From Lysobacterales bacterium (lineage in GTDB: Bacteria > Pseudomonadota > Gammaproteobacteria > Xanthomonadales > Ahniellaceae): a stretch of DNA of 41,950 nucleotides. The notes under the pieces are model-generated. The model saw only the letters and a program-made list of their open reading frames with translations, did not search any database and had not been told where the DNA came from. The stretch is taken from assembly GCA_038249585.1 (NCBI GenBank), contig JBBSDI010000001.1, positions 1 through 41,950 on the forward strand. Reading direction: 5' to 3'. The position numbers were made by a program, and so were the translations under genes. Below are positions 21,445 to 40,091 of the stretch, one piece after another; position 1 is the stretch's first letter, and the number at the start of each line of letters is the position of its first letter.

Positions 21445-23424
21445 ATGTGCGGCATCGCCGGTTTCTTCGGTCCCTCCGCCGCGCCCGCGGACGACCACGC
21501 CACCCTGCAGGCAATGATCGGCACCCTCAAGCACCGCGGCCCCGACGGTTTCGGCTATCTGGTCGAAGACGGCGTCGGCCTCGCGCACGCGCGGCTGTCG
21601 ATCATCGACCTCAACACCGGCGACCAGCCGATCCACAACCCCGCGCGCACCGCGTGGACGGTGTTCAACGGCGAGATCTTCAACTACGTCGAGCTGCGCG
21701 CCGAACTCGAGCGCGAGGGCCGGCGCTTCTATACGCAGTCCGACACCGAAGTGATCGTGCACCTGTACGACCGCGACGGCGATCGCTTCGTGGAGCATCT
21801 CAACGGCCAGTTCGCCATCGCGATCTGGGACAACCAGCGCCGCCGCCTGCTGCTGGCGCGCGACCGCGCCGGCATCCGCCCGCTGTACCTCGCGCGCGAA
21901 CGCGGCCGGCTGTGGTTCGGCTCCGAGGTCAAGGCCCTGCTCGCAGCACTGCCGCAGTGCGCGCGTCTGGATCCGCTGGGTCTGATCGAGGCGCTCAGCC
22001 TGTGGGCGCCGTTCGACCCGGATACCGTATTCAGTGGGGTGGCAAGCCTGCCGCCCGGCCACGTGCTCGCCATCGAGCACGACGGCCGCGAGACGCTCAC
22101 CCGCTACTGGGACTGGCACTTCCCGATCCGCGGCGACGGCGAGCATTACGCCGACTACGACTCGATCGACGCGGCTGCCGCCGATTTGCGCGCGCTGCTG
22201 ATCGACGCGGTGCGCCTGCAGCTGCGCGCCGACGTGCCAGTGGGCGCGTACCTGAGCGGCGGACTGGATTCATCCGGCATCGTCGCCCTGATCCGCGGCT
22301 TCACCAACACGCCGGTGCGCACGTTCTCGGTCGCCTTCGCCGATGCCGAGTTCGACGAGAGCGCGCACCAGATGGCGATGGTGCGGCATCTGCACACCGA
22401 CCACACCACGCTGCGCTGCGAGCGTGGCGACATTGGTCGCTTGTTCCCCGAACTGATCCGCCACACCGAAGTGCCGATCCTGCGCACCGGACCGCTGCCA
22501 ATGATGATGCTGGCGCAAAAGGTGCGCGAGAGCGGCTACAAGGTGGTGCTCACCGGCGAGGGCGCCGACGAAGTATTCGGCGGCTACGATCTGTTCAAGG
22601 AAGCCAAGGTGCGCCGCTTCTGGGCGCGCCAGCCCCACTCGCGATTCCGCCCCCTTCTGCTGCGAAGACTGTACGGCTACCTCGGCAACTCGCCGGTCGC
22701 CAACGACGCCTTCGCCCAGCAATTCTTCGGCAGCGGCCGCGAACACCTGCAGCGGCCGGTATTCGCCCACGTACCACGCTTCGCCACCGCACGCCGCGCC
22801 CTCGCCTTCCTCTCCAGCGAGATGAAAGCCGCAGTCGGCAACTTCGACGCACTCGACTTCGTCGAATCGCGCCTGCCGCCTGAGGTCGCACGCTTCGCCC
22901 CGCTCGCCCGCGACCAGTACGTCGAAGCCAAAACCCTGCTCGCGGGGTACCTGTTGTCGTCGCAAGGCGACCGCGTCGGCATGGCGCACAGCATCGAAGG
23001 CCGCTACCCCTACCTCGACCATCGCCTGATCGAATTCGCCAACCGCCTGCCGGAGCGATTCAAGATCACCGGCCTGCGCGAGAAGAACGTCCTGCGCCGC
23101 GCACTCGCCGGGCTGTTGCCCGACGATATTCTCAAGCGCACCAAGCAGCCCTACCGCGCACCCGACAGCACGAGTTTCTTCCACGACGGCAAGGCGCTGG
23201 ACTACGTCGAGGACCTGCTCTCGGGCGATGCGATCCGCAAGGCGGGCTACTTCGATGCCGGCGCGGTCGGCAAGCTGCTCGACAAGTGCCGCGCAGGCAA
23301 GGCGACGGGGTTTGCGGACAACCAGGCGTTCGTGGGGGTGTTGTCGACGATGTTGCTGGACGGCATGCGCGCCACGGGATTGCGTGACTCCAGGCCCGCC
23401 GCGGCGAAAACTCCGCTGCCGTAG
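21445..23424 (+). CDS. asparagine synthase (glutamine-hydrolysing) family amidotransferase, EpsI / exosortase-A-associated-amidotransferase-like
   Basis: N-terminal nucleophile MCGIAGFF (class II GATase). HRGPDG. PP-loop YLSGGLDSSGIVAL. About 659 aa. Confidence 0.95.
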   Translation: MCGIAGFFGPSAAPADDHATLQAMIGTLKHRGPDGFGYLVEDGVGLAHARLSIIDLNTGDQPIHNPARTAWTVFNGEIFNYVELRAELEREGRRFYTQSDTEVIVHLYDRDGDRFVEHLNGQFAIAIWDNQRRRLLLARDRAGIRPLYLARERGRLWFGSEVKALLAALPQCARLDPLGLIEALSLWAPFDPDTVFSGVASLPPGHVLAIEHDGRETLTRYWDWHFPIRGDGEHYADYDSIDAAAADLRALLIDAVRLQLRADVPVGAYLSGGLDSSGIVALIRGFTNTPVRTFSVAFADAEFDESAHQMAMVRHLHTDHTTLRCERGDIGRLFPELIRHTEVPILRTGPLPMMMLAQKVRESGYKVVLTGEGADEVFGGYDLFKEAKVRRFWARQPHSRFRPLLLRRLYGYLGNSPVANDAFAQQFFGSGREHLQRPVFAHVPRFATARRALAFLSSEMKAAVGNFDALDFVESRLPPEVARFAPLARDQYVEAKTLLAGYLLSSQGDRVGMAHSIEGRYPYLDHRLIEFANRLPERFKITGLREKNVLRRALAGLLPDDILKRTKQPYRAPDSTSFFHDGKALDYVEDLLSGDAIRKAGYFDAGAVGKLLDKCRAGKATGFADNQAFVGVLSTMLLDGMRATGLRDSRPAAAKTPLP

Positions 23425-23865: not shown

Positions 23866-25233
23866 TCAGCGGCCTGCCGCGATCTCTGCGCCGAGCTGTT
23901 CGATCGATCGCCCAAGCTCCGCGGACTTGTGCGGATCCTGCGCATGCTCGGTCAGCGACACCAGCGCGGCGAGCAGTTTGAATCGCGGCGTGCGCGGCGG
24001 AACCCTGTGCAGCTTGCCACCGATGATCACGAAACCATCGCCGCCCCGGGATACGCCGCCGAACACCTCGGCCACCAGTTCGTCCAGTTCCGCCTCAAGC
24101 TGCGGTCCGGCGAGTGGCCCCAGCCGCCAGCCGGGCCGAATCGCGACCGTGTCCTGGCAGATGCCGTCTGCGGTCAGCCGCACCCACGGTCCACTCTGGT
24201 CGGGATTGATCCGCTCGCGCTCGAGCACCGAGGCGCGGCTGAACGGAAGTCCACGCAGGGTATTGGTATCCGAATCGCGCCCTTCCAGATGCAGGTGCGG
24301 GTTAGTCGATCGACCGGAGTTTCCCGCCCGTCCGATCACCTGGCCCACCCGTACTGCCGCGTTGGGAAGCTTGAATTCTTCCGGGATACTGCCCTTGAGC
24401 AGGTGCGCGTAGATCACCGTGATCTCGCCATGCCGGATTCGCAGGAAGTTGCCGCTGCCCGGCGTGCCCTCGGGGCGTGCCGCACCTGGGGTTGCGTTGT
24501 TCTCGTAGTGATCGGCGAACTCCTCGACGATGCCGTCGGCCACCGCACGCAACCGCTTGCCCCAGATCCGGTAGTCGGCATTGCTGCTCTTGGTCGCGCC
24601 GTCGTTGAGCTGGGTCCAGTCGCCGCGCACGCGCTTTTGCACGCTGATGTCGTGCGCGTAGATCTGGGTGCCATTGGCCCCGCCGTTTGCCCAGTGGCGC
24701 GCTGATGTCACCAGGTACTCGCCATCGTCGAGATCGAACTGACTCATGGGCAAACGCAGTGCGGCGCCACTCGCAGGCTTGGTGTAGGCCACCAGATCCA
24801 TCGACAGTGTCTTCGGGCTGGCGAATCCATGACACGACACCTTGATCACGATCGACTGCGGCAACGGCAATGGAAGGTAGACCTCATTGCGGTGGTGGTT
24901 CTCCCCGGCTTTGCTGACATCCAGATCCACGACACCGTTCGACCAGGTTGCGGTGGTGCCGGCCTTGATCACGCCATCATCGGGATCGTCGTCGCCGGCG
25001 GGATCGACCGCAATCTTGACGCCTTGCATCTGCGAGTCGGCATGCGGCGAGTTGGGGTAGGAGAACTTGATCCCGCTGAGGGTCAAGTCGCTATCGCCGG
25101 TGTTCTGCAAGTGCAAGCGCAGGGCGATCTTCGCGTACGCCGGTTCGCCTTGCGCTTTTGCCGCGATCGGCAAATAGAACAGGCTCGTTCCGTCGGTCGG
25201 TTGAACAAAGAGTTCCAGACTGGGTATCGACAT
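23866..25233 (-). CDS. M23 (LytM/lysostaphin-type) metallopeptidase domain protein with unknown N- and C-terminal extensions and no signal peptide
   Basis: GNFLRIRHGEITVIYAHLLKGS and VGQVIGRAGNSGRSTNPHLHLEGRD (the HxH zinc motif). ATG 25233 is preceded by GGAG at a 6-nt spacing. The N-terminus MSIPSLELFVQPTDGTSLFYLP has no hydrophobic leader. Confidence 0.85.
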   Translation of the reverse strand: MSIPSLELFVQPTDGTSLFYLPIAAKAQGEPAYAKIALRLHLQNTGDSDLTLSGIKFSYPNSPHADSQMQGVKIAVDPAGDDDPDDGVIKAGTTATWSNGVVDLDVSKAGENHHRNEVYLPLPLPQSIVIKVSCHGFASPKTLSMDLVAYTKPASGAALRLPMSQFDLDDGEYLVTSARHWANGGANGTQIYAHDISVQKRVRGDWTQLNDGATKSSNADYRIWGKRLRAVADGIVEEFADHYENNATPGAARPEGTPGSGNFLRIRHGEITVIYAHLLKGSIPEEFKLPNAAVRVGQVIGRAGNSGRSTNPHLHLEGRDSDTNTLRGLPFSRASVLERERINPDQSGPWVRLTADGICQDTVAIRPGWRLGPLAGPQLEAELDELVAEVFGGVSRGGDGFVIIGGKLHRVPPRTPRFKLLAALVSLTEHAQDPHKSAELGRSIEQLGAEIAAGR

Positions 25234-25516
25234 GGTCAGCTCCAAATGTTGGGTTCGCAATGTTTGCGTCGTGAGCATCGCCCGCGGTGCGATGAGAACT
25301 GCAGCGGGCAATTGCCGTGTGCGCGTCGCGATCTCCAGACACCGCATATCGTTTGATGCTGAAAAGCGACGCGTATTCCAACGAACGCGAAATCCGTCGC
25401 TTGGAGGTCAGCACCCTGCGCGTTGTCATCGATGCCCGCTTTCCCTGTATTCGAAAGCGACGCAGCCCGCATAGTGGTGCCGCAGTCGATACTTTCGACA
25501 GGAATTTTGCGTGATT

Positions 25517-25580: not shown

Positions 25581-26501
25581 CTAGTCGCCGCGGCCGCGAC
25601 CCAAAATGCCACCGATCATGCGCTTGAGCGCCATCGGCAACAGCGCGAGCACTTCGCCGCGTCGTGCGGGATCGAGCCTCCATGCGTCGCGCGCGAGACG
25701 CCATGCCTGTGCCCAGCGGCGCTGGAACAGCATGCCGCGCGCGGTACGACGGTAGGCGATGGCGAGTGCGCTGTTGCGCTCGTCGGCATCGACCAGTGGG
25801 GTGGCGTCGGCGACTGCGCGGCGCATGACGCCGAGGTAGTCGTCGTAGGTGCGCGCTAGACTCGACAGGCCGTCGTGGCAGCGCAGCGCGCGCACCAATG
25901 GCTGCGCGATCACGCCGATCGGAAATTCGCGCGCAACGCGCAGATGGAAGTCCAGGTCTTCGCCGGTAGCAAGGCTCTCGTCGAAGCCGCCGATACGTTC
26001 ATACACCGTGCGGCGCATGAGCACCGATGCCGGTACCAGCGCGGGATCGCGCAGCACGTGTCCGAGGATGAATCCGTCGACAGGCAACGCCGCCCGGCGC
26101 GACAGCACGTCGATTACGCGGCCTGCCGCATCGACCCGTTCGACGTCGCAAAGGACCATGCCGAAGTCAAGGTTGGCGTCGAGGAATTCGCACTGCAGGC
26201 GGGTTTTCTCCGGCAGCCAATCGTCGTCGCTGTCGAGCAGGGCGAGGTAGCGGCCACGGGCCAGCGCAAGGCCACGATTGCGCGCGGCCGATACGCCGGC
26301 ATTGGACTGGCGCAGGTACACGATGCGATCGCCGAACGCGGCGGCCAGCGCCTCGCCGGTGCCATCGGTCGAGCCGTCGTCGACCACGATCACCTCGTCG
26401 ACGCGGCGGGTCTGCGCCAGCACCGAGCGCAACGCGCGCTGCACCAGCTCGCGGCGGTTGTAGGTTGGTATGATCACCGAAACTTCGATGCTGCCCGCCA
26501 T
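25581..26501 (-). CDS. GT2-family glycosyltransferase
   Basis: VSVIIPTYNRRELVQRALRSVLAQTRRVDEVIVVDDGSTDGT and ALLDSDDDW (DXD). ATG 26501 is preferred over the TTG at 26519. Confidence 0.9.
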   Translation of the reverse strand: MAGSIEVSVIIPTYNRRELVQRALRSVLAQTRRVDEVIVVDDGSTDGTGEALAAAFGDRIVYLRQSNAGVSAARNRGLALARGRYLALLDSDDDWLPEKTRLQCEFLDANLDFGMVLCDVERVDAAGRVIDVLSRRAALPVDGFILGHVLRDPALVPASVLMRRTVYERIGGFDESLATGEDLDFHLRVAREFPIGVIAQPLVRALRCHDGLSSLARTYDDYLGVMRRAVADATPLVDADERNSALAIAYRRTARGMLFQRRWAQAWRLARDAWRLDPARRGEVLALLPMALKRMIGGILGRGRGD

Positions 26502-27519
26502 GCTGCCGGACCTGTTCAAGAAAGTGCTTTATGGTAGCGGTCTGCTCGGGCTGGTCCATCGCCTGCGCAATCGACGCACGCTGACGGTGATCATGTTCCA
26601 CCGGATCCTGGCGCCCAGCGACCCGCGCTGGGCCAGTTGCGATCCCGACTACACCCTGGCGCAGGACCTTTTTGCGCAGGTGCTGGCGTTTTTCGGCCGC
26701 CACTACCATGTGGTCAGCTGTCAGCAGGTGCTTGAAGCGCGGCGCGGCGGTGCGGCACTGCCAGCGCGTGCGCTGCTGATCACCTTCGACGACGGCTGGC
26801 AGGACAATTTCGAATACGCGCTGCCGGCGCTGCGCGCTGCCGGCATGCCTGCACTGCTGTTCGCCGTCGCCGATGCGATCGACCGCGCACAGCCGTTCTA
26901 CCAGGAGCGAATAGTCGCGGCGTGGCGACGCAATGCGCTGGGCACGGTCGATCTGGCCCGTGCGCTGGTAGCGCAGGGGCAACCGGTGGCGGTCGCCGCG
27001 GACAACGGTATCGCGGCACTGCGCGGCCTGATCGCCGCGCTCGAACAGCTGCCGATCAACACCCGACGTGCGCTGCTTGCCACGCTGGAGCCGCGTCTGG
27101 GCGATGGCCTGCGTCATATGCTCAACCGCGACGAACTGGCCAGCTTGCGCCGCGGCGCGGTGGAGATCGGTCTGCACGGCAAGAGCCACGAGCCACTGAC
27201 CCGCGTGGACGATCTGGAAGCCGAGCTCGGCGGCGCGCGCGCGGCGATGACACAACATCTGGGCGGCGATGCACAGCCGAACACGATGTCGTTTCCGCAT
27301 GGGAAGTTCGACCCGGGCATCGCACAGCGCGCGCTGCAGTCCGGCTACGAGCTGGTATTCACCAGCATGCCAACGCTCAATCCACTGCAGCCGGCACCCG
27401 GCTGGCTGCTGGGCAGGCTCGGCTTCGAGACCGCCGCGGTCGCCGAGAGCGGCGGACGCTTCAGGCCGGACTGGCTGGCTTTGTACCTGTTCCGCCGGCC
27501 GCCGCGCCTGCTCGCTTGA
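26470..27519 (+). CDS. polysaccharide deacetylase (CE4) family protein, paralogue of 4806-5918
   Basis: TVIMFHRI, ALLITFDDGWQDNFEYALPALRAAGMPALLF and VEIGLHGKSHE. Alternative in-frame ATGs lie at 26488 and 26500. Every option overlaps the start of the divergent GT2 gene. Confidence 0.85.
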   Translation: MITETSMLPAMLPDLFKKVLYGSGLLGLVHRLRNRRTLTVIMFHRILAPSDPRWASCDPDYTLAQDLFAQVLAFFGRHYHVVSCQQVLEARRGGAALPARALLITFDDGWQDNFEYALPALRAAGMPALLFAVADAIDRAQPFYQERIVAAWRRNALGTVDLARALVAQGQPVAVAADNGIAALRGLIAALEQLPINTRRALLATLEPRLGDGLRHMLNRDELASLRRGAVEIGLHGKSHEPLTRVDDLEAELGGARAAMTQHLGGDAQPNTMSFPHGKFDPGIAQRALQSGYELVFTSMPTLNPLQPAPGWLLGRLGFETAAVAESGGRFRPDWLALYLFRRPPRLLA

Positions 27520-29740
27520 TGCCCTCGAAATCGCTGGGCACCTCGCCGCGCGGCAGTTCGCGCGGCGCGCACTGCGCATCCACGGCGAACACCAGCGGTG
27601 CGCCGGCTACCTCGATGCCTTCGCTGCCGCCGACCGCGTACCGGCAATCATCGAGTACCAGCCCGCCGTCGATCCGGGTCTTCGGCGCACCGCTGGTTTT
27701 TGCCGGCAGCACGATATGGGTCGCGGCACCCGGCGGCAGCTGGTACACCAGCGGCTCGCTGCCGTCGGCGCTGGCCACCACCCAACGCTGCGTGCCGCGT
27801 TCGATCAGCCACGCGTGGCCACCGCGCGCGACCAGCTCGCGCGGCTTGGCCGGTTGGGTTCCGGTCAGCGGTGCAACCTCGATCGCAAACGCGGCGGATG
27901 CGGCAGTGCCGGGCACCAGCAGGCGCACCTCGCTGGCCGCGAAGCGCGAAGCGTCGCAGTTGCCGCGCGTATAGCGATCGTTGAAGCAGTCGCCTGCCGG
28001 CAGACGGCGTACTTCGGTCTCGCCACCGGAAGCGGCCAGGCGCAACACGCTCAGTCGCGTATCGCGCAGCTTCGCATCGCCGCCGTGCCCGATCTGGTCG
28101 AGATCGACGCGACTGCGAAAGCGCAGGTGGAGCGCGTTCTCGGGTTTTTCGGTGCGCGCGCGGTCGAGCACCAGCAAGGTGGCCGAATCGCGACCATCCG
28201 CGTCGGTCCACGGCAACAGCACGAAGTCGCGATAGGCCAGTTTGATCGGACTGGCCACCTCGCGAAAGCGGTACTGGTCGGCATAGTCGCAGCGCGCCAG
28301 CAGTACGCCATCGGCGAGCGTGTGCTTCCAGCGGAAGCCGGTGTCGACGCTCCAGAAGGTCTGGCTGGGCACATAGCCCTCGGGCTGACCGCTGGCGGCT
28401 ACGGTCGGCGCATTGCTGGTCAGGGTCGACAGACTGCCGTAGGGCGCGGGGTCGACGATCGCGTGATCGCGTCCACGCGAGAGCACGAAGTTGCCCGCGT
28501 GCGGCGGCAGGTGGTCGACATCGATCGTCGATGAACAGAATGCCGCGAACCACACCGCGTGCTTGTCCCAGCGGGTTCGCGCATACAGGATGGAAGTGCC
28601 GCGCGCGAAGAAGGTGTTGCCGGAGTTCTCGCGCGGGAAGGCCTGCGGTGGCTCGGACGTGGCCTCGGCCAGTGCGCTGAACAGCACATAGCCCAGATCG
28701 TCGGACGCGAAGTCGTCGATGCGTTCGATTTCCGCAAGAGCCCAGGATTTTGCACGCCCGGGTGCCGGTCCGAGTGCGACCGCTTCGAGCGTTTCGCGAC
28801 GCACGTGGATGTGCGGCACATGCGACTGCGTATCGCCCACCACCAGGGTGCGTTTGCCGGTGGGCGTCATCGCATACACGTGACGCAGGACAACGTCTTC
28901 CAGCCACTGGCCCAGCGCTGCAACGTCGACGCCGTAAGGCGCGACCGCACGCGCGGCGATCGCATAGTTGGCAAGACTCAGCGGCGCGTACTGCCAGCCC
29001 TCGCCCCAGTCGCCGCCGGTCAATACCCCATCGCGCGCGGCCGGCAGCAGTTCATTGGCGAAGGTGTCTTCGACCACCGTGCGCCACAGGCGCGCACCGT
29101 CTTCACCCGCCTCGCTGCCTTGCGCCACCGCCATCAGGGTCGCAGCCGCGACATAGCCCGCGTGGTAGTTGTTGCCCGGATCGTGCGCGCGGTAGCCGCT
29201 TTTGGTGTACCAGCGCGTCCATGCATCGAAGCGCTGGCGCGCTTTGGCGCGCAGCGCTTCGTCCATCTGCGGATGATCGTGCAGCCAGTCGTAGGCGAGC
29301 GCGGTGTAGGGACCCAGTGCGCGGATCGCGTAGCCGCTATCGCGCCGCGCAGAGTTGTCGCCGCCTTTGCCGTCGCCGATTTCCGTCACATCGTCGAGCA
29401 GTGCGCGGAAGTAGATCAACGCGGTCTGCGCGTGGCGGTCTTCGCCCGTTGCGCGCCAGGCGATTAGACACGTCTGCAGCGAACGCGCCCAGTCCAATCC
29501 CATGTAGCCATCGCGCGCGAATTGCGCAGGCGCGCCGGCGATGCGCTTGCAGTTGGCGATCGCACCGGCGGTAGCCGTGCCGCGCGTCGCACCGAGCTCG
29601 CGCAGGCGTTCGGCCACGCCCGGTTCGTTGAACAGGCGCGGATGCGGGCCGCTGGGTTCAGGTGGCAGCTGGGCAGCGACTGGAGCGATCCAGGCGATGG
29701 CCAACAGGGCGACGAGGGCGACGATGCTGCGGATGTTCAT
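27461..29740 (-). CDS. secreted heparinase II/III-like polysaccharide lyase family protein, paralogue of 3021-4763
   Basis: Signal peptide MNIRSIVALVALLAIAWIAPVAA|Q. LAYDW and HDPGNNYH are shared with the first copy. The DVDHLPPHAGNFVLSRGRDHAIVD block is heparinase II/III-like. ATG 29740 is preceded by GGGGAAG. Confidence 0.8.
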   Translation of the reverse strand: MNIRSIVALVALLAIAWIAPVAAQLPPEPSGPHPRLFNEPGVAERLRELGATRGTATAGAIANCKRIAGAPAQFARDGYMGLDWARSLQTCLIAWRATGEDRHAQTALIYFRALLDDVTEIGDGKGGDNSARRDSGYAIRALGPYTALAYDWLHDHPQMDEALRAKARQRFDAWTRWYTKSGYRAHDPGNNYHAGYVAAATLMAVAQGSEAGEDGARLWRTVVEDTFANELLPAARDGVLTGGDWGEGWQYAPLSLANYAIAARAVAPYGVDVAALGQWLEDVVLRHVYAMTPTGKRTLVVGDTQSHVPHIHVRRETLEAVALGPAPGRAKSWALAEIERIDDFASDDLGYVLFSALAEATSEPPQAFPRENSGNTFFARGTSILYARTRWDKHAVWFAAFCSSTIDVDHLPPHAGNFVLSRGRDHAIVDPAPYGSLSTLTSNAPTVAASGQPEGYVPSQTFWSVDTGFRWKHTLADGVLLARCDYADQYRFREVASPIKLAYRDFVLLPWTDADGRDSATLLVLDRARTEKPENALHLRFRSRVDLDQIGHGGDAKLRDTRLSVLRLAASGGETEVRRLPAGDCFNDRYTRGNCDASRFAASEVRLLVPGTAASAAFAIEVAPLTGTQPAKPRELVARGGHAWLIERGTQRWVVASADGSEPLVYQLPPGAATHIVLPAKTSGAPKTRIDGGLVLDDCRYAVGGSEGIEVAGAPLVFAVDAQCAPRELPRGEVPSDFEGIKRAGAAAGGTGTKPASPA

Positions 29741-29776
29741 GCGCTTCCCCAAATAGTTTTGCAGACGCCGCGGAGA

Positions 29777-30832
29777 CTATTCATCCTCGTCGGCGGCGGT
29801 GAGGTAGTAGTGATCCGGTTGCGGCCCATTGCCGAACCAGCGGCCGAAGATCGGGCGCGCGCTGCGTTGCACGAAACCGCAGTTTTGCCATGCGGCGAGC
29901 GAGTCCGGCGGCGCGGCCAATTGCATGGACACGCTGCGGCAGCCGGCTGCGCGCGCCGCGCTCACCAGCGCATCCACCTGCGCCCGCGCTACGCCGAGCT
30001 GCTGCGTCGCTGAACCGCAATCGTCAACGTGCAGGTCGCACTCGCTGTGGTGGCAGACGAACCACGCCTGCACTTGGCCGCTGTCTGGGTCGAGCAGCTG
30101 CAAGGTGCGCGTGGCGCCGACTGGACGCGGGTCGAAACGCCAGCCGAGGAACTGCCGATCGTGCACGCCATGCAGCACCTCGCGATCCAGCACCTCGTCA
30201 TCGATCTGATGTGCATCACCGGTGGTGGCGGTCGAATCCACCCACAGCGTGCGCCAGCGTGAATCGCTGCGGCTACGCCAGCTGTCGCGCAGGCGCACAC
30301 CCAGATCGACCACCGGCCCGGCCAGCGCTGCGAGCAGCCGCGGCATGCGCAGCGCCAGGTACTCACGATGCCGCAGCACGCGCGCATGCCGCACCAGCTC
30401 GCCGAGCGACGCGTAGCCGACGCGCTTGAACACCGGCACGGCCTTGCGATTGGGAAAGCCGTAGATCAAATCGAAGCGGATTGAAGCGGCGTCCAGCAGA
30501 GCCTGCTGCAGCTGCAGTGCGGGACCCAGAGTGCGGTGTGCGGGCAGCACGGCCAGATCGACCAGCACGCCAGCGCGGATCTCGCGCGCGCCGATCCGCA
30601 TTCGGCGCGGTGCGGCTGTAGCCACGCCGACCGCCTCGCCGCTGGCCAGGTGATGCAGGATCATGGTCAGCGGCGCACCGAGCGGACTGTCGCGATACAC
30701 CCAGTCGAACTTGGCCTGCATCCGCGCCGGCTCACCGAGATTGTCGTGCCAGATCCCGAGCACGGTCTGGCGATCGCGGGCGGGGTCGGCCGCTGCGGTT
30801 GCGTAGACGGGCGCGGGCGCTGCTGCGTTCAA
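29777..30832 (-). CDS. GNAT-superfamily / FemAB-like acyl(aminoacyl)transferase
   Basis: About 351 aa. VLVDLAVLPAHRTLGPALQLQQALLDAA and GFPNRKAVPVFKRVGY resemble the GNAT acyl-CoA-binding core. The second half, ending WQNCGFV, suggests a duplicated GNAT fold as in FemAB/CelD-type proteins. The TTG start overlaps the upstream stop (TTGA), so the start is uncertain. Confidence 0.65.
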   Translation of the reverse strand: MNAAAPAPVYATAAADPARDRQTVLGIWHDNLGEPARMQAKFDWVYRDSPLGAPLTMILHHLASGEAVGVATAAPRRMRIGAREIRAGVLVDLAVLPAHRTLGPALQLQQALLDAASIRFDLIYGFPNRKAVPVFKRVGYASLGELVRHARVLRHREYLALRMPRLLAALAGPVVDLGVRLRDSWRSRSDSRWRTLWVDSTATTGDAHQIDDEVLDREVLHGVHDRQFLGWRFDPRPVGATRTLQLLDPDSGQVQAWFVCHHSECDLHVDDCGSATQQLGVARAQVDALVSAARAAGCRSVSMQLAAPPDSLAAWQNCGFVQRSARPIFGRWFGNGPQPDHYYLTAADEDE

Positions 30833-31815
30833 TGGCCCAGATCCAGCTCCGGCACGTCGCCAACCAGCACCGGCGACAGGTGCAGGTAGCGCGTGGTGCG
30901 GCGCTTGGCGTGGATATCGGCATACACCGCTTCGGCTTCGGCGTGGGTGATGCCGAGCACGTGGGCGACTTCAAGTGCGGGCGCCCCGTGGTTGAGCGCC
31001 CACAAGGCCAGATCCATCGCGCGATACGGCAGCGCGAAATAGAACTCGTCCTGGCCCTGCGCGAGGCTGTAGGTGTCGGTGGTCGGCACCGCCACGCAGA
31101 CCCGTTCCGGCAGATCGAGATGGCGGGCCATGCCGTAGACTTGACTCTTGTACAGATGGGCGATCGGCTTGACGTCGGCGGCACCATCGCCGTTCTTGAC
31201 GAAAAACCCCTGGTCGTACTCAACGCGGTTCGGCGTGCCGGTGACCGCATAGTTCAGGCGATCGGCGTGGAAGTACTCCAGCGACTTGCGCAGGCGCTGC
31301 TTGAAGTTGGTGGCAGCGACAATGGTCAGGTATTCGTTGAGCGGCAGTGCCACATCGTGGTCGGCGCCATCGGGCGCCTTCGCCACCAGACGAAAGTAGT
31401 TGATCCGGCCTTCCTTGCCGCCAGCGATCACGATCTTGAAGCGCCAACCCGGCCCATACTCAGACAGCACGCGGCGCACGGCGGCATCGCGCTGCTCATA
31501 GCAGCCGATGGCGGCGAGCGCGGGCTGCATATCGTGGGTCTGTGTGCGTACGCCCAGGTGGTCGGCCAGGATCGTTGCGCGCGCGGCACTGTCGTCGCTG
31601 GAATCGCGCTCGGGCAGGATCAGCGCGAACACCTTGTCCGCGCCCAGCGCGCGCACCGCCAGCCCGAGGCAGGTCGAGCTGTCGATGCCGCCGGAGATCG
31701 CCACCACCAGGCCACGCCGATGCAGGGTGCGCGAGACGATCTCGCGTAGACGCTGCGCGATGCGGGTGGCTTCCTGCTCGTAATCGATGTCCAGTACGTT
31801 CCAATCCAGTTGCAT
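30829..31815 (-). CDS. NAD(+) synthetase (NadE) family PP-loop ATP-pyrophosphatase paralogue
   Basis: LVVAISGGIDSSTCLGLAV (the SGGxDS PP-loop) and GDGAADVKPIAHLYKSQVYGMARHLDLPERV (the NadE C-terminal signature). The ATG overlaps the ligase stop by 1 nt (TGATG). Confidence 0.85.
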   Translation of the reverse strand: MQLDWNVLDIDYEQEATRIAQRLREIVSRTLHRRGLVVAISGGIDSSTCLGLAVRALGADKVFALILPERDSSDDSAARATILADHLGVRTQTHDMQPALAAIGCYEQRDAAVRRVLSEYGPGWRFKIVIAGGKEGRINYFRLVAKAPDGADHDVALPLNEYLTIVAATNFKQRLRKSLEYFHADRLNYAVTGTPNRVEYDQGFFVKNGDGAADVKPIAHLYKSQVYGMARHLDLPERVCVAVPTTDTYSLAQGQDEFYFALPYRAMDLALWALNHGAPALEVAHVLGITHAEAEAVYADIHAKRRTTRYLHLSPVLVGDVPELDLGH

Positions 31816-33332
31816 CAGTTTGCCCCTGTCGATGCCGCCTGCGCGGCGACTTCCGCCCGTTTGATCTTGCCCGAGGCGGTTTTTGGCAGCGCCTCGACGA
31901 ACACCACCTGTTTCGGGATCTTGTATGCGGCAAGGCGCGCGCGGCAGTGCGCGCGGACCGTGTTCTCATCGAGGTTGCCGCGGCGCACGATGCAGGCGCG
32001 GATCACCTGGCCCAGCACCGCATCGTCGATGCCGACCACCGCGACTTCGACCACGCCGCCGAGTTCTGCGATCGCCTCTTCGACATCGATCGGATGCACG
32101 CGATGCGCCCCGGTCTTGATCATGTCGCTACGCCGCCCGACCAACCACAGCACGCCGTCGGCATCCATGCGTCCCAGATCGCCGGTCTTGAGCCAGCCGT
32201 CGTGGAGCACGGCGGCAGTGGCCTCTTGATTGCGCCAGTAGCCGCGCATCACGTTCGCGCCCTGTGCCCAGACTTCACCGACTTCATCGGTGGCGGCGGC
32301 CGATCCGTCCTCGCGGCGGATCGTTATGCGCACGCCGACGATCGGCCGGCCGACCGAGCCCAGCTTGGCCTCGAGCTGTTCCGGCGGCAGCCAGGTCAGG
32401 CGCGCGGTGGCCTCGGTCTGTCCATACATCACGAACAGGCGCGCATGCGGCAATGCCAGGCGCAGGCGCGCGGTAGTGGCCGCAGGCATCGCACCACCGG
32501 CTTGGGTCAGATAGCGCAGTGCGCTCAGGTCGTGGGCGGCCAGCGAGACCCGGTCGAGCAGCAACGCATAGGTCGATGGCACGCCGGAGAAGCCAGTCGC
32601 ACGCTCGCGCGCGAGGCGCTCGACGAGCACCTGCGGGAACACCACGTTGGCCTCCAGGCACACTCGCGCGCCGACTGCGAGGTGCGTGTGCAGCACCGAC
32701 GCGCCATAGGAGTAGTAGAACGGCAGCACACTGACGATGCTGTCGGCGTCGCTCAGCTGCAGGTAGTCGAGGATCGATGCCACGTTGGCTGCAAGGTTGG
32801 CGTGGCTGAGCATCACGCCCTTGGGGCTGCCGGTGGTGCCTGAGGTGTACAGGATCAGGGCCAGGTCGGTCGCATGCGCGGCACTGGCAGGTGCGACTGC
32901 CGCGCAGGCGTCGACGACCGCTGCCCAGCTGTGGGCATGCGCGCTGTCCGCGCCGGCGGCGATGGTGAGCGGCGGGAATTCCAGCGCGGCCAGCGCTTCA
33001 TCGACGTCGGCGCTCGCGGTTTGATGCACCAGCAGCCGCGGTTCGGCATGGCGCAACCAGACCGTGTGGTCGCGTGCGCGCGCCTGCACGTTCAGCGGAA
33101 CTACGGCCGCGCCGGCAATCCAGCTGCCGTAACAGGCGACGACAGCTTCGATCGAATTGGGCAGCAGCAGCGCGACGCGATCGCCGCTGCCAATGCCGCG
33201 TTGCGCAAGTGCGCCCGCAAATCGCAGAACCGCCGCCCACAGCGCGTTGTAGCTTATCGAGCGCGTCGACTCCGCGATCGCGACACGCTGCGATTGCGCG
33301 TGGGCGGCGAGCCGTGCAGGTAGCAGCGACAT
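31815..33332 (-). CDS. AMP-dependent synthetase/ligase (acyl-CoA/acyl-ACP ligase, exosortase-A-system-associated type)
   Basis: LILYTSGTTGSPKGVMLSH (AMP-binding motif), YGQTEA, GWLKTGDLG, and a C-terminal LPKTASGKIKR. Confidence 0.9.
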   Translation of the reverse strand: MSLLPARLAAHAQSQRVAIAESTRSISYNALWAAVLRFAGALAQRGIGSGDRVALLLPNSIEAVVACYGSWIAGAAVVPLNVQARARDHTVWLRHAEPRLLVHQTASADVDEALAALEFPPLTIAAGADSAHAHSWAAVVDACAAVAPASAAHATDLALILYTSGTTGSPKGVMLSHANLAANVASILDYLQLSDADSIVSVLPFYYSYGASVLHTHLAVGARVCLEANVVFPQVLVERLARERATGFSGVPSTYALLLDRVSLAAHDLSALRYLTQAGGAMPAATTARLRLALPHARLFVMYGQTEATARLTWLPPEQLEAKLGSVGRPIVGVRITIRREDGSAAATDEVGEVWAQGANVMRGYWRNQEATAAVLHDGWLKTGDLGRMDADGVLWLVGRRSDMIKTGAHRVHPIDVEEAIAELGGVVEVAVVGIDDAVLGQVIRACIVRRGNLDENTVRAHCRARLAAYKIPKQVVFVEALPKTASGKIKRAEVAAQAASTGAN

Positions 33333-33348
33333 CGCCGGTCGCCGCGTT

Positions 33349-33603
33349 TCAGCTTGCGGTCTTGCGCGCGAGATAGGCGCAGATCGCGTCGACCGAATCG
33401 AAGTTCTGCGGCACCATGTCCTCTGGCGGGACGCGGATCGACAGCGCCTCCTCCAAGTGCGTGATCAGCTCCAGCACGCCGGTCGAGTCGACCACGCCGG
33501 TAGTGATCAGCGAGCCGCTGTCGGTCATCGCGGACTGATCATCGGTGAACAGGAAATTACCGAGGATGAAATTCCGCACCAGCGGGCGATGCGCGATGGC
33601 CAT
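33349..33603 (-). CDS. acyl carrier protein
   Basis: 84 aa. GVVDSTGVLELITHLEE contains the DS(x)GxLE phosphopantetheine-attachment motif. Ends 17 nt upstream of the ligase start. Confidence 0.85.
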   Translation of the reverse strand: MAIAHRPLVRNFILGNFLFTDDQSAMTDSGSLITTGVVDSTGVLELITHLEEALSIRVPPEDMVPQNFDSVDAICAYLARKTAS

Positions 33604-33740
33604 GCGATTGGGATCCACTGGAAAGGCGGCGATTATGCCGCAAGCGTGAGAACTGCGTGATGTCGGATGCGAAGGTTGACGGTTCACGACGGCGATCCTT
33701 GGCGCTATCGTGCGCCGCAGATCGATGGAGGATGTCGCCG

Positions 33741-34931
33741 ATGTGGGCCCGAAGCACCCAGCTGCTCGTTGTGATTGTTCTTCTGATGTCGCTGGCGGCC
33801 TGCCAGCGCCATGCACCGCAACCGCCGAGTGCGCCGCAGCCGGCCGCTGGTAGTAGCAGCGCCGAGTACGCCAGCGAACGCGGTCGCGTGCGGGTCACCG
33901 AACTGGTTACGGGCCTCGCCCATCCGTGGGGCCTCGCGTTCTTGCCCGACGGTTCGATGCTGGTCACCGAGCGCCCCGGATTCCTGCGCCGCATCGGTGC
34001 CGATGGCGCGGTGTCGGCGCCATTGGCGGGGGTGCCGCAGCCTTATGTCGACGGCCAAGCCGGGCTGCTCGACGTGGCAGTCTCGCCCGACTTTGCCAGC
34101 GACGGACTGGTCTATCTCGCGTTCGCCGAGCCGAGCCTGCGCGGCAATCTGTGCGGTACGGCGGTAGCGCGCGGCGTGCTCGCTGACGGCGCACTCACCG
34201 GAGTCGAGGTGATCTATCGGCAGGAACCCAAGCTGTCGGCTGGCACGCACGTGGGCGCGCGGCTGGTGTTCGATCGTGGCGGCCACCTGTTCGTGACCCA
34301 CGGCGACAACCGTCAGGCGCTGCTGGCGCAGGAGCTGGACAAGCTGCAGGGCAAGCTGGTGCGGATATTTCCCGATGGCAAGGTTCCGCCGGACAATCCC
34401 TTCGTGGGACGCGACGACGCGCGAGCGGAGGTGTGGTCCTACGGCCATCGCAACATGCAGGGCGCGGCGCTGCATCCGGACACCGGCGCCCTGTGGACCA
34501 CCGAACACGGCCCGATGGGCGGCGATGAGCTCAACTTGCCGCAGGCGGGACGCAACTACGGCTGGCCGCTGATCACCCACGGCATCGAATACTCCGGCCA
34601 GCCGGTGTCCGGCTCGCTCGGCAAGGCGGCGCCCGACATGGAGCCGCCGCACCACGTGTGGGTGCCTTCGCCGGGGCTCAGTGGCATGGCGTTCTATACC
34701 GACGCGCGGATGCCGGCATGGCGCGGCAATCTGTTCCTCGGCGCGTTGGCGGCAACGTCGCTGATCCGGCTGGAGCTCGATGGCGACCGCATCGTGCACG
34801 AGGAACGACTGCTCGGCGCGCGCGGCGAACGCATCCGCGATGTGCGACAGGGTCCGGACGGCACGCTGTACGTGCTCACCGATGCGGTGTCGGGCAAGCT
34901 GCTGCGGATCGAGCTGCTCGCCGATTCCTGA
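33741..34931 (+). CDS. PQQ-dependent sugar dehydrogenase (soluble aldose/sorbosone dehydrogenase family) lipoprotein
   Basis: Lipobox LMSLAAC. GLAHPWGLAFLPDGSMLVTER and WSYGHRNMQGAALHPDTGALWTTEHGPMGGDELNLPQAGRNYGWP are signature beta-propeller GSDH blocks. GGAGGA lies 9 nt upstream of ATG 33741. Confidence 0.9.
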   Translation: MWARSTQLLVVIVLLMSLAACQRHAPQPPSAPQPAAGSSSAEYASERGRVRVTELVTGLAHPWGLAFLPDGSMLVTERPGFLRRIGADGAVSAPLAGVPQPYVDGQAGLLDVAVSPDFASDGLVYLAFAEPSLRGNLCGTAVARGVLADGALTGVEVIYRQEPKLSAGTHVGARLVFDRGGHLFVTHGDNRQALLAQELDKLQGKLVRIFPDGKVPPDNPFVGRDDARAEVWSYGHRNMQGAALHPDTGALWTTEHGPMGGDELNLPQAGRNYGWPLITHGIEYSGQPVSGSLGKAAPDMEPPHHVWVPSPGLSGMAFYTDARMPAWRGNLFLGALAATSLIRLELDGDRIVHEERLLGARGERIRDVRQGPDGTLYVLTDAVSGKLLRIELLADS

Positions 34932-34945
34932 GCGACGGTTGCGCT

Positions 34946-36256
34946 TCACTGGCTGCGCCAGATGATCGCGGCGTAGATGCGGTTTTCGTCGAAGCCACCC
35001 GTCGGATCGCTGCTGTCGCGCTGCGCGTGGGTGGCCTCGAGACTGAAGTCCAGATCGCGCCGCAGACGCGTACGCAGCCGCAGTCCGAACTCGTCCTCGC
35101 GACTGTCGAAATCCGTATCCACGAAACGCAGCCAGTCGGCGATTGCAAATGCGCCCAATGAGGTGCGCGGCGACAGCGCGTAGTCGACGGTCAGGCTGAC
35201 ACCGCGGTTGCGCTGCTCGAGCGTCGAAGCATTCTGGTAGTCCTGGCCGGAGTAGTACGCGCCGGCACGCAGGGTGAACAACTCACCAAGGCGGCTATAG
35301 CCGATGTCGATGCGGTCGAGCTCGTAGACCTCGGAGTTGAGGGTGGCCGCGCCACCGACGCCAGCGACGCTGTCGGGCAGCAGCAGGGCATCGACGTTGG
35401 GCGCACTGCCGGCCAGATCGGTGGCGCTGTCTGACAGCTCGTGGCGCAGGCCAAGATCAAGACGGGAGATATCGCTCAGCGCGAACGTGCCCGAGGCGCG
35501 CGCGAGCAATCCGTTACGGTTGTCCAGTCCGCTGTCGAGATCGACCCAGTTCCAGCCCAGCTCGGCGCGCAGTGTGGTGCGCGACGAACGCCAGTCGTAG
35601 CCGCCAAATAGCCCCAGGCGCTCGAAGTCGCTCGCCGTGGCGGTGGGGTTGTCCAGCTGCACGGATTCCAGCGAGGCATTGCCGGACAGCGTCGCGACCG
35701 GACTTACGGTGCGCAACAGGCGTGAAGTCAGGATCAGGCGATCGCTGTTGAATGCGTCGGTGGATTGGGCATAGCTGTTGACGTAGCGCAACTCAGTGCG
35801 CCCGGCCATCGCCGCGGAGAAGCGGTACAGCAGGGTCGGGCCGGTGGAGAACACGTTGCTGTTCTGCACGTTGTCGGGCGCGGCGCTGGCGAAGATATCG
35901 ATCGGCTGCTGGGCGGCCGAATCGGTCACCGTCCACAGCAGGCGCTCGGGACGGATCGACCATACCGCCTCGGCAGCAAGGCGGATATTGAAGTTGGGGT
36001 CGAAGTCGACGCCGGAGTAGCGGCTGTAGCTGAGCGAGCCGGTGAAGTTTGCGCGCAGGGTCTCACCATCTTCGCTGGCCGAGATGTCGGCGAACGGCGA
36101 CAGCCGGCTGCCCGACTGCGGATCGACCACGCGACGGCCGAGGTTGTCGCTGTACTCCAAGCCCAGACCCAGCGCCCAGTCGATATCCCACGCGTGGGCG
36201 GGCGCGGCGAACGCCGCCGCTGCCGCTGCAAGGACCCGCAACACCGGTGACTTCAT
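34946..36256 (-). CDS. predicted outer-membrane beta-barrel protein of PEP-CTERM-type EPS loci
   Basis: Signal peptide MKSPVLRVLAAAAAAFAAPAHA|W. The composition is Ser/Gly/Tyr/Asp/Leu-rich with alternating hydrophobicity throughout (LGLGLEYSDNLGR, LYRFSAAMAGRTELRYVNSY). Sits directly downstream of the EpsG-like gene. ATG 36256 is preceded by GGGGAGAA. Confidence 0.7.
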   Translation of the reverse strand: MKSPVLRVLAAAAAAFAAPAHAWDIDWALGLGLEYSDNLGRRVVDPQSGSRLSPFADISASEDGETLRANFTGSLSYSRYSGVDFDPNFNIRLAAEAVWSIRPERLLWTVTDSAAQQPIDIFASAAPDNVQNSNVFSTGPTLLYRFSAAMAGRTELRYVNSYAQSTDAFNSDRLILTSRLLRTVSPVATLSGNASLESVQLDNPTATASDFERLGLFGGYDWRSSRTTLRAELGWNWVDLDSGLDNRNGLLARASGTFALSDISRLDLGLRHELSDSATDLAGSAPNVDALLLPDSVAGVGGAATLNSEVYELDRIDIGYSRLGELFTLRAGAYYSGQDYQNASTLEQRNRGVSLTVDYALSPRTSLGAFAIADWLRFVDTDFDSREDEFGLRLRTRLRRDLDFSLEATHAQRDSSDPTGGFDENRIYAAIIWRSQ

Positions 36257-36319
36257 CGCGTCGTTCTCCCCTGCAAACACCTACCAATCAAGGCATCCCT
36301 CGATTCAGCGACGTTCCGA

Positions 36320-37120
36320 TCACGGAACGCCGTTGAAAACCACGCCTGCCAATCGCGCCGGATCGAGCACCGCCACCGAATCCTTGATCTGCGGCAGCGT
36401 ATCGACGCCGTGACCGGCCACCACCACCGCGATGTCGGCAAGATCACTCAAGATGCGCGCGTCGGGTGAACTGCCGATGGGCGGTGCGTCGAGGATCAAA
36501 TAGCGATCCGGATAGCGTGCCCGCAGATTGCTGATCAGTCCCATCATGCGATAGGACGTGAAGTACTCGCCGCTGCCTTCGCGGCGCTCGCCGGCCGGGA
36601 TCAGGCGCAGGCGCCGCACGCCAGTCGGGTAGATCACCTTGTCCAGTCCGATCGCGGGATTGTCGAGGAAATCGGTCAGCCCGCCGTTCAACATGCGTAC
36701 ACCGAGGCGCTCATGCAGGGACGGCGTGCGCAGGTTGCAGTCGACCAGCAGGGCGGTCTTGCTCTCGTCGAAGGCGAATGCGGCTGCCAGGTTGGCGGCG
36801 ACGAAGCTGGCACCGCTGCCGGCGCTGACCGGTGCGACAAGGGTCACGAAGTTGCGTCCGCGCCCGTGCGCGAGCAGCTGCGTGCGCAGGTCGCGGAACA
36901 CATCGGCATGGCGTCGATCGGCCATGTCGTGGCGGATCAGTCCACGCGCATCGAGATCGCGCGCCGGCTTCGGCGCGGGCTCGTCCATGCGCAGGATCAT
37001 CTCGCGCGAGGCCTGTTGCGACTGCAGCGCGTGCGCGTTGTCGCCCGGCGGCCCGGTCAGGGCGCCTGCAGTACCGGCGTCGATGCGCTGCGGAGTTGGG
37101 AATTCGCGCGGCATACTCAT
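36320..37120 (-). CDS. EpsG / BY-kinase-like P-loop (MinD/ParA fold) protein with a degenerate Walker A
   Basis: Overall BY-kinase layout: FVTLVAPVSAGSGASFVAANLAAAFA (Walker A position), ALLVDCNLRTPSLH (Walker A-prime position) and YLILDAPPIG (Walker B). ATGA overlap with the EpsF-like gene at 37117-37120. Confidence 0.8.
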   Translation of the reverse strand: MSMPREFPTPQRIDAGTAGALTGPPGDNAHALQSQQASREMILRMDEPAPKPARDLDARGLIRHDMADRRHADVFRDLRTQLLAHGRGRNFVTLVAPVSAGSGASFVAANLAAAFAFDESKTALLVDCNLRTPSLHERLGVRMLNGGLTDFLDNPAIGLDKVIYPTGVRRLRLIPAGERREGSGEYFTSYRMMGLISNLRARYPDRYLILDAPPIGSSPDARILSDLADIAVVVAGHGVDTLPQIKDSVAVLDPARLAGVVFNGVP

Positions 37121-38664: not shown

Positions 38665-38671
38665 GCGCGCC

Positions 38672-39328
38672 TCAGAATGCCCGTTCGGGGACGGTGATGA
38701 CATCGCCCGGAAGAACCGGGAAGTTGGTTTGCAAGTCGCCCGACTTGAGGATCCGTCCCAGCCGCACGTCGAGCGTGCTGGTGGCAGCAGAGCCCTGCGC
38801 GCGCCGATACAGGCGGGTGCGATCGGCCGCGGCGAACTCGGTGATGCCGCCCGCGGCGAGCACCGCATCGAGCACCGTCATGCCTTGCCGGTAGGGTACC
38901 GATACCGGCTGCTGCACCGCGCCAGTCACACGCACGCGCGAGAGGTACTCATGGCTGCGCAGATCGGTCAGGATCACCGCGACCTTGGTGTCGCGGATGT
39001 ACTTCGACAGTTTCAGTTCGATCTCGGCAGAAACCTCCTGCGGCGTTCGCCCGCCGGCCATCACATCGCCGATCAGCGGTACCGAGATGCGCCCGTCGGG
39101 GCGCACCGGCACGGTCACGCCGAGATCCGGATTGCGCCAAACGGTGACCTGCATGATGTCGTCCACGCCGATCCGGTACTCCTCGGTGAATGCCGACGGC
39201 GACGGAACTCCCGGCACGTCCTGCGCATGCGCGCAGGCCGCTGCGGCGAGTGCGAGCAGCATGCTGCACAGGCAGCGACGCAGCGCGCCTTTCGCGTATC
39301 GGTTGAACGTGTTTCGGAATCCGATCAT
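38672..39328 (-). CDS. polysaccharide export lipoprotein (short Wza / EpsE-like: Poly_export + SLBB)
   Basis: Lipobox LALAAAAC. YRIGVDDIMQVTVWRNPDLGVTVPVRPDGRISVPLIGDVMAGGRTPQEV is the canonical PES/Poly_export motif. About 218 aa. Confidence 0.9.
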   Translation of the reverse strand: MIGFRNTFNRYAKGALRRCLCSMLLALAAAACAHAQDVPGVPSPSAFTEEYRIGVDDIMQVTVWRNPDLGVTVPVRPDGRISVPLIGDVMAGGRTPQEVSAEIELKLSKYIRDTKVAVILTDLRSHEYLSRVRVTGAVQQPVSVPYRQGMTVLDAVLAAGGITEFAAADRTRLYRRAQGSAATSTLDVRLGRILKSGDLQTNFPVLPGDVITVPERAF

Positions 39329-39380
39329 GGTCGAGGTTCGTGTTAGTGTGATTGGATCGAGCGACAACGGATCACTGCCG

Positions 39381-40088: not shown

Positions 40089-40091
40089 GAT

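Follow-up and report, generated by a model that had tools for sequence, protein, structure and literature searches.

The window analysed here, 41,950 nt long, is the beginning of contig JBBSDI010000001.1 (positions 1 to 41,950, assembly GCA_038249585.1) from a Lysobacterales bacterium. It encodes a free-standing acyl carrier protein (ACP), an adenylating ligase, a protein of the NadE family, a double GNAT acyltransferase and an AsnB-type amidotransferase. The cassette to which these genes belong stands for a real and widespread carrier-protein-dependent pathway, in which carboxamides are probably formed. According to a more specific reading, about which confidence and doubt are evenly matched, all five proteins act in one such pathway, and a carboxamide-bearing acyl group is handed to an amine acceptor. 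As part of this explanation, the NadE-like protein would not be the NAD synthetase of the cell, a point tested through the orthologous operon of Sinorhizobium meliloti.

Conservation of the cassette

Relatives of the NadE-like protein, whose homologues number in the thousands, were sought in one genome per species, using a ten-sequence alignment as the query: at least 592 species contain one. Eighty loci, one per species, were examined, and partner genes were counted with hidden Markov models built from clusters of six-frame open reading frames (ORFs), only where enough flanking sequence was available. In 64 of 69 loci the ligase gene is no further than 2.6 kb from the NadE-like gene, and in 63 of these the two are co-oriented; the ACP gene follows closely (within 3.7 kb in 62 of 68). 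An AsnB-type amidotransferase is present within 6 kb in 47 out of 57 loci, the GNAT of 351 amino acids (aa) within 7 kb in 35 out of 58, and a HemK/PrmC-type N5-glutamine methyltransferase within 3 kb in 17 out of 65. Partners lie on the same strand in nearly all loci, which come from Gamma- and Betaproteobacteria and from Myxococcota, with plasmid copies in Alphaproteobacteria. The genes are ordered AsnB-ACP-ligase-NadE or, in Burkholderiales, AsnB-ligase-ACP-NadE; in Pseudoxanthomonas mexicana and Dokdonella koreensis the ACP, ligase, NadE-like and 351 aa protein genes adjoin each other, preceded by the AsnB gene. The original prediction, made from the letters of the window, had proposed that ACP, ligase, NadE-like and GNAT genes belong together, and their linkage is indeed conserved in the 80 loci. 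The set includes AsnB, ACP, ligase and NadE-like protein as fixed members, while GNAT, HemK, a ketoacyl-ACP synthase (KAS) III and a 4'-phosphopantetheinyl transferase (PPTase) are optional. AsnB, missed by the original prediction, is thus a more constant partner than GNAT.

Positions of the genes are reported in Table 1. Third-position GC content is 0.80-0.86 in all five minus-strand ORFs, from the ACP to a 759 aa protein, which is the coding signature of this 67% GC window. Five tightly packed genes had been described, and all five ORFs are present, although the gap between ACP and ligase genes (TGA, 16 nt, ATG) is 16 and not 17 nt. Ligase and NadE-like genes overlap by 1 nt (TGATG), NadE-like and GNAT genes by 4 nt (TTGA), while a TAG, 36 nt and an ATG form the junction between GNAT and the 759 aa protein. 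Since tight packing recurs across species, it is more than a chance feature: in the 80 related loci, a 4 nt overlap is the commonest ligase/NadE-like junction, and the gaps between NadE-like and GNAT genes mostly range from -4 to +8 nt. A search for promoters or terminators in the operon gave none above chance.

Table 1. Location of the cassette genes and of neighbouring features in the window
Feature	Position	Strand	Details
Free-standing ACP, 84 aa	33349-33603	-	ATG start; Pfam PP-binding 22.9 bits (cut-off 20.8); DSTG site
ANL-superfamily adenylating ligase, 505 aa	31815-33332	-	AMP-binding 275 bits, plus AMP-binding_C
NadE-family PP-loop ATP pyrophosphatase, 328 aa	30829-31815	-	NAD_synthase 145 bits; SGGIDSS PP-loop
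Tandem (double) GNAT acyltransferase, 351 aa	29777-30832	-	TTG start; Acetyltransf_1 on residues 55-140 only
Secreted large protein, 759 aa	27461-29740	-	ATG start after GGGGAAG; ribosome-binding site; signal peptide
AsnB-type glutamine-dependent amidotransferase, 659 aa from MCGIAG	21445-23424	+	TIGR01536 482 bits
Family-2 glycosyltransferase (GT2)	25581-26519	-	Glycos_transf_2 109 bits
PgaB/NodB-type polysaccharide deacetylase	26470-27519	+	Polysacc_deac_1 53.5 bits
XrtA/PEP-CTERM-type exopolysaccharide export/priming genes	34946-41834	-	Outer-membrane protein, tyrosine kinase, chain-length determinant, export protein, EpsB_2

The start of AsnB was set at the MCG codons at 21445, a longer ORF from 21055 being considered an upstream extension; the protein retains Cys1 and the SGGLDSS motif. 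In most loci the AsnB gene is located immediately upstream of the ACP or ligase gene. In three of the closest relatives (L001, L003, L004) it shares its strand with the ACP gene and lies upstream of it; in L001 and L004 a GSDH gene separates the two. In the window it is found 6 kb away on the other strand, because of an inversion: compared with L004, the closest relative, the stretch running from GT2 to GSDH (25581-34931), cassette included, has the opposite orientation with respect to its flanks. Inverted repeats flanking the block were searched for, and none above chance was found. Two further genes are located near AsnB. A 687 aa fusion of a GFO/IDH/MocA oxidoreductase with an SDR epimerase/reductase, similar to OleD/HpnA (18186-20249, plus strand), lies upstream of AsnB and is conserved there in D. 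koreensis, L004 and L005. A 493 aa protein (23866-25347, minus strand), encoded between the cassette block and AsnB, carries an M23 peptidase domain at its C-terminus, and its long N-terminal region matches no family; the protein has no match in any of the relative loci examined.

In a number of cases, members of the cassette are fused. Among representatives at 50% identity, the NadE-like protein is joined to the ligase (P0127), to a 4'-phosphopantetheinyl transferase (P0123) or to AMP-binding_C and PP-binding domains (P0134). A single ORF encodes NadE-like protein and double GNAT in L068 (7377-9971), and another one HemK-like methyltransferase and double GNAT in L079 (8632-11022). Fusions are independent signs that the fused proteins work in one pathway, and restrict the likely chemistry to the formation of carboxamides on acyl-ACP or beside it; some of them may be artefacts of metagenome assembly or gene calling.

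The optional members vary among lineages. The HemK/PrmC-type gene is placed between ligase and NadE-like genes in about one fourth of the loci (L025, L026, L030, L032, L043, L044, L053, L061, L075, L082 and others). The HemK-like protein scores 210.6 bits against the PrmC equivalog of NCBIfam, above the cut-off of 199.1, and will for this reason be automatically annotated as the release-factor methyltransferase. In four Burkholderiales loci (L056, L057, L060, L062), an extra small ACP and a FabH-like KAS III precede the AsnB-ligase-ACP-NadE genes. One of these modules, in L060, has housekeeping genes on its flanks (pyruvate kinase, aldolase), so that polysaccharide loci are not the only setting of the cassette. 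In one Rhodanobacter locus, an Sfp-like PPTase, judged by eye from its VGVDIER motif, is encoded close by.

Proposed reaction sequence and the NadE-like protein

In the proposed sequence, the ligase would adenylate a carboxylic acid and thioesterify it onto holo-ACP, as its S. meliloti orthologue does in vivo. The NadE-like protein would then adenylate another carboxylate that this molecule still has free, reaction with ammonia would turn it into a carboxamide, and the AsnB-type enzyme would perform a second amidation, dependent on glutamine. Both amidation steps are suggested by family chemistry, intact catalytic motifs, gene fusions and context. In some lineages the HemK/PrmC-like methyltransferase may N-methylate the amide; enzymes of this type normally methylate the side-chain amide of glutamine. 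Finally, the double GNAT would take the acyl group off the carrier and pass it to an amine; here the acceptor would probably be an amino sugar, set free by the neighbouring deacetylase. The fusion of ligase and NadE-like protein favours a molecule with two carboxyls, one thioesterified and one amidated. In its most far-reaching form, the proposal would make the protein the first of the NadE family shown to act on a carrier-tethered substrate: the free carboxylate of an acyl-ACP would be converted to a carboxamide, N-methylated in some lineages by a HemK-type enzyme that is fused or adjacent, and the resulting carbamoyl-acyl group would be transferred by a dedicated double GNAT to an exopolysaccharide or lipid. 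In this form it is tentative, and may well turn out to be wrong.

For the first step, the experimental evidence comes from S. meliloti. A protein search of plasmids located an asnB-ACP-ligase-nadE operon on its pSymB replicon (NC_003078.1, 1450582-1455388) and similar ones on replicons of S. medicae, Ensifer, Shinella and Mesorhizobium; the rhizobial operon adjoins minCDE, outside any polysaccharide cluster. Identities between window and pSymB proteins are 51% for AsnB, 41% for ACP (SMb20651), 37% for the ligase (SMb20650) and 55% for NadE. The smb20650 gene is co-transcribed with the ACP gene smb20651, and its expression in E. coli cells making holo-SMb20651 yields acylated SMb20651; SMb20650 cannot replace FadD for growth on oleate and makes no oleoyl-CoA (Pech-Canul et al. 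2020, PMC7232532). It is therefore an acyl-ACP synthetase and not a CoA ligase. SMb20651 is a verified ACP, for which phosphopantetheinylation is shown; for the window ACP this modification is predicted. Loading of the free-standing ACP by the ligase, as originally predicted, thus occurs in vivo for the orthologues, and the window ligase is a probable acyl-ACP synthetase for the adjacent ACP.

Two sequence subtypes, about 37% identical, are found among cassette ligases, as exemplified by those of the window and of L085 (8415-9962). The subtype marked by YGQTEATARL occurs in the window, in Xanthomonadaceae and in Chromatiales, the one marked by YGLTECKR in S. meliloti, Burkholderiales and Rhodanobacter; the two may load different acids. 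The best NCBIfam match of the window ACP, "ACP_for_OlsHI" of the GH3-type ornithine-lipid pathway, was rejected: the score of 50 is below the cut-off of 130 and the partner enzymes of that pathway are different, so the similarity is generic.

The NadE-like protein reaches 463 bits against NF002048, "NAD(+) synthase" (cut-off 313), and 145 bits against PF02540 (cut-off 21), the latter match being split in two by an insert of about 65 aa. Its identity to E. coli NadE is 24%, and its SGGIDSS, NFKQRLRK, GFFVKNGDGAAD and PTTD can be aligned with the motifs of that enzyme; the patterns SGGxDS, N-x-K-x-R-x-R, GFFxKxGDGxxD and PTxD are retained. Given these motifs, a chemistry in which adenylation is followed by attack of ammonia is expected, and the protein is almost certainly an active enzyme, predicted to adenylate a carboxylate and to replace it with ammonia. 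The residue aligned with Tyr32 of B. subtilis NadE is lost; in the B. subtilis structure, the tyrosine at that position stacks on nicotinate. Across Xanthomonadales (Dokdonella, Pseudoxanthomonas, Luteimonas, Rhodanobacter) identity is 75-96%. In a neighbour-joining tree, cassette-linked proteins form a tight clade, separated from E. coli NadE by a very long branch, with the cassette-linked S. meliloti copy in a basal position.

It could be argued that the protein is a genuine ammonia-dependent NAD synthetase, which supplies NAD redundantly or under particular conditions and plays no chemical part in the carrier pathway. The NF002048 score and the intact NadE motifs would fit, as would the 75-80% conservation across families of Xanthomonadales and the existence of a sister clade, about 60% identical, in non-cassette contexts beside Rrf2 and Pta genes. 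This explanation, however, offers no rationale for co-translation with an ACP; coupling and same-strand adjacency to ligase or ACP genes are observed in about 93% of the informative loci, from several classes, and the protein is joined to ligase, PPTase, ACP or GNAT domains in multiple independent fusions. With its insert of about 65 aa and its lost tyrosine, the clade also stands apart. A further argument is provided by pSymB, on which only engA and a tRNA-Arg gene are essential: once these have been moved to the chromosome, the plasmid can be removed, leaving a strain able to grow in M9 minimal medium (PMC4207669). The NadE-like gene of the operon is hence not the essential NAD synthetase in S. 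meliloti, and for this species the original suggestion of a pathway paralogue, distinct from a sole housekeeping NadE, is upheld. Overall, a role limited to NAD synthesis appears unlikely.

An even smaller probability is given to a LarE-like function, in which the NadE-like protein would adenylate a carboxylate for the phosphopantetheine thiol of the ACP, acting as a second loader of PP-loop type and not as an amidating enzyme. A weak similarity to LarE (TIGR00268, E 4.9e-10; PDB 5udq) and the fusions to ACP and PPTase domains go in this direction, but the similarity to NadE is far stronger, and a standard ANL ligase, already acylating the ACP, accompanies the protein: we regard this function as very improbable. 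The terminal amidation domain of polyketide synthases and non-ribosomal peptide synthetases (bioRxiv 2024.10.28.620694) was also considered as a relative and discarded, as it is an NAD-binding domain similar to acyl-ACP reductases, unrelated to NadE.

A number of points weigh against the single-pathway reading, in which the NadE-like protein amidates a carrier-bound acid. The main caveat comes from four copies (L059, L067, L073, L078), about 60% identical to the window protein, which are not accompanied by the cassette: found in Krumholzibacteriia and Gemmatimonadales, they form a sub-clade of their own in the tree, and may be either genuine NAD synthetases or cases in which linkage was secondarily lost. 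Moreover, virtually all catalytic and nicotinate-side motifs of NadE are kept and the NF002048 cut-off is passed, so that, judging from the motifs, NaAD (nicotinic acid adenine dinucleotide) could still be amidated. GNAT is missing in S. meliloti and in many Burkholderiales, and transfer must differ there. Finally, the abstract of a 2009 report is said to describe SMb20651 acylated with C12:0 or C18:0 in E. coli: both acids are monocarboxylic and would not fit a dicarboxylate substrate, unless the ligase is promiscuous.

As for the neighbourhood of the four non-cassette copies, a PP2C/SpoIIE phosphatase gene is located upstream, and genes for an Rrf2 regulator and a phosphate acetyltransferase (Pta) downstream.

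Proposed transfer step, possible acceptor and surroundings

The AlphaFold2 model of the 351 aa protein (pLDDT 92) contains two GNAT domains, only one of which is recognized by sequence search. Its best fold matches in PDB are Eis-like proteins (2hv2, 4my0) and N-myristoyltransferases, with TM-scores of about 0.6; a sequence search against PDB gave no significant match. The invariant motif R-x-x-G-x-A is kept, and may be read as the site that binds the pantetheine phosphate. The protein had been described as double-GNAT/FemAB-like. The tandem GNAT architecture is supported by model and fold matches, and is all that is shared with FemAB: no Fem protein is present among the top 50 PDB fold matches, Pfam and NCBIfam searches gave no match to the FemAB family (PF02388), and the resemblance is to Eis and N-myristoyltransferase. 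As the confident model matches tandem GNATs that acylate amines, it supports the transfer step proposed above. In Xanthomonadales, the acceptor is suggested by the neighbouring genes: the deacetylase gene, a conserved neighbour found downstream of GNAT in 28 loci, and the GT2 gene, itself a conserved neighbour of the deacetylase and co-located in 24 loci, point to a de-N-acetylated amino sugar.

A different role for amidation is conceivable, in which the NadE-like and AsnB-like enzymes modify the acceptor or the final product, and not the carrier-bound species, leading to a uronamide or to the amide of a lipo-amino acid. The carboxylate would be that of a uronic acid in the polysaccharide, or of an N-acyl amino acid made by GNAT from fatty acyl-ACP. 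This would agree with the acylation of ACP by the ligase orthologue in E. coli, reportedly with ordinary fatty acids, with the resemblance of GNAT to the long-chain N-myristoyltransferase, and with the lyase fold of the 759 aa protein, which implies a uronic-acid polymer in the locus. AsnB-type enzymes, in addition, amidate free carboxylates of peptides or sugars elsewhere, and the NAGGN enzyme AsnO is a family neighbour (TIGR03104, 353 bits). Fusions of the NadE-like protein to ligase, PPTase and ACP domain, on the contrary, indicate an action on the same acid or on the carrier, and the four-gene operon of S. meliloti features neither GNAT nor a polysaccharide context, the L060 module being also stand-alone. 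Amidation of the acceptor is therefore possible rather than probable.

The fifth minus-strand gene had been included in the unit as lyase-like. The AlphaFold2 model of the 759 aa protein (pLDDT 88) does show a polysaccharide-lyase fold: Foldseek finds 2fuq (E 1.5e-23, TM-score 0.64-0.66), along with PL15, PL17, PL33 and DS-epimerase structures. By sequence, no match was found in Pfam, even at E 0.1, nor in NCBIfam, and none of significance in PDB. In the alignment of the family His410, Tyr434 and Tyr456 are invariant. The gene is nevertheless outside the conserved unit, since L004 and L005, the two closest relatives, are the only loci in which it adjoins the cassette. Hypothetical proteins of Betaproteobacteria and Myxococcota make up its homologues. 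From its model, the protein may be seen as a separate secreted enzyme, which would process a uronic-acid polymer and not take part in the carrier-protein steps. Myxococcota homologues (P0456, P0464, P0494, P0509) are about 800 aa long and carry annotations of MYXO-CTERM / TIGR03382 sorting tails; no such tail is present in the window protein.

Upstream of the operon, at higher coordinates, XrtA-type export and priming genes are found. Three of the products score above the NCBIfam cut-offs: the chain-length determinant (TIGR03007, 382 vs 279), the export protein (TIGR03027, 195.5 vs 180) and the EpsB_2 priming transferase (TIGR03013, 570 vs 393). The tyrosine kinase and the outer-membrane protein are below cut-off (TIGR03018 and TIGR03016, respectively). 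The rest of the window encodes glycosyltransferases, three deacetylases, a flippase, a Wzy-like polymerase, an acyltransferase and methyltransferases. It also contains a second adenylating enzyme (8206-9996, minus strand), similar to PaaK/F390 synthetases (DVU_1553 family, 154 bits, below cut-off); this enzyme has an N-terminal extension of about 180 aa and gives no Pfam match at E 0.1. The originally assumed exosortase-A locus is, for this window, a type of locus and not a demonstrated feature. The export genes are of the XrtA type, but none of the large ORFs of the 42 kb matches an exosortase family, and no PEP-CTERM protein or tail was detected among them; an exosortase gene may be located outside the window. 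Our literature search for reports tying NadE to PEP-CTERM or exosortase found none.

Comparison with known systems

All four families of the S. meliloti asnB-ACP-ligase-nadE operon are present in the window, with ACP, ligase and NadE-like genes contiguous and AsnB 6 kb off on the other strand; the cassette belongs to this type, which was described in 2009. Ramos-Vega et al. 2009 (Microbiology 155:257) are said to have characterised the ACP SMb20651 and to have given the original description of the operon; the abstract reportedly lists its products as AsnB, SMb20651, SMb20650 and "NadE1". The original prediction presented the replacement of decarboxylase and hydrolase partners by a NadE paralogue as a distinct variant: decarboxylase and hydrolases are indeed absent and the paralogue is there, but the variant is not unrecorded, given the 2009 paper. 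Families and their order are the same in S. meliloti operon and cassette. Differences are found in the translationally coupled double GNAT and the downstream lyase-fold gene of the window, in its XrtA-type polysaccharide locus, which has no counterpart around the S. meliloti operon, in the AsnB gene split off by inversion, and in the ligase subtype (YGQTEATARL vs YGLTECKR). New here are the distribution over at least 592 species in several phyla, the list of fixed and optional partners, the fusions, and the GNAT-extended form embedded in a polysaccharide locus.

With the NAD synthetases of E. coli (b1740), B. subtilis (1KQP) and P. horikoshii (2E18), the NadE-like protein shares PP-loop fold and motifs. 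It differs in its low identity (24% to the E. coli enzyme), in the insert of about 65 aa, in having operon and fusion partners that deal with carrier proteins, and in the dispensability of the S. meliloti copy. NCBI models name it "NAD(+) synthase", and the HemK-like protein "release factor N5-glutamine methyltransferase"; automatic annotation has probably given both genes a wrong name. Should the two act in a carrier-protein pathway, an NAD synthetase that is possibly not one is counted when the metabolism of hundreds of species is reconstructed. If, further, the most far-reaching form of the proposal holds, the mis-named enzymes of hundreds of genomes would belong to an unrecognised surface-decoration chemistry. 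The cassette is conserved from Alphaproteobacteria to Myxococcota.

D-alanylation by DltA/DltC is similar in that a free-standing carrier and a dedicated adenylating enzyme decorate a cell-surface polymer, and the window ACP has a weak similarity to DltC (E 1e-6). The window ligase, in contrast, is of the FadD/MenE/MatB type and not a DltA, DltB and DltD are missing, and the amidating enzymes have no Dlt counterpart. In the formation of the malonamyl starter of tetracycline, the AsnB homologue OxyD acts on a dicarboxylate held as a thioester, whose free carboxylate it converts to a carboxamide. In some cassette loci a FabH-like KAS III and a second ACP are present; no polyketide synthase is, and the likeness is one of mechanism only. 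The 759 aa protein, finally, has the alpha/alpha-toroid and beta-sandwich of heparinase II, PL15-PL17 alginate lyases and dermatan-sulfate epimerase (TM-score 0.6-0.66), with an identity of only 10-15% to enzymes of the heparinase II / alginate lyase fold.

A parallel in context is the XrtA cassette, composed of a TIGR03108 amidotransferase, a TIGR03098 ligase, an ACP, a TIGR03099 decarboxylase and hydrolases. Like that cassette, the window set comprises an AsnB-type amidotransferase, an ANL ligase and a small ACP in a PEP-CTERM-type polysaccharide locus, yet it misses both cut-offs. The ligase, whose best NCBIfam match is TIGR03098, scores 372 bits against a cut-off of 592 (335-484 bits for cassette ligases from other loci), while for AsnB TIGR03108 is the second-best match, behind TIGR01536, a general model of asparagine synthases, at 429 bits against 817 (420-466 bits for three other cassette AsnBs). 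Furthermore, a NadE paralogue is present, and neither a TIGR03099 decarboxylase match nor a hydrolase partner is found among the window proteins. By these scores, the window cassette is a sister system of the XrtA-associated set, and not a member of it; solving either this cassette or the ACP/ligase/amidotransferase set of exosortase-A loci would probably inform the other.

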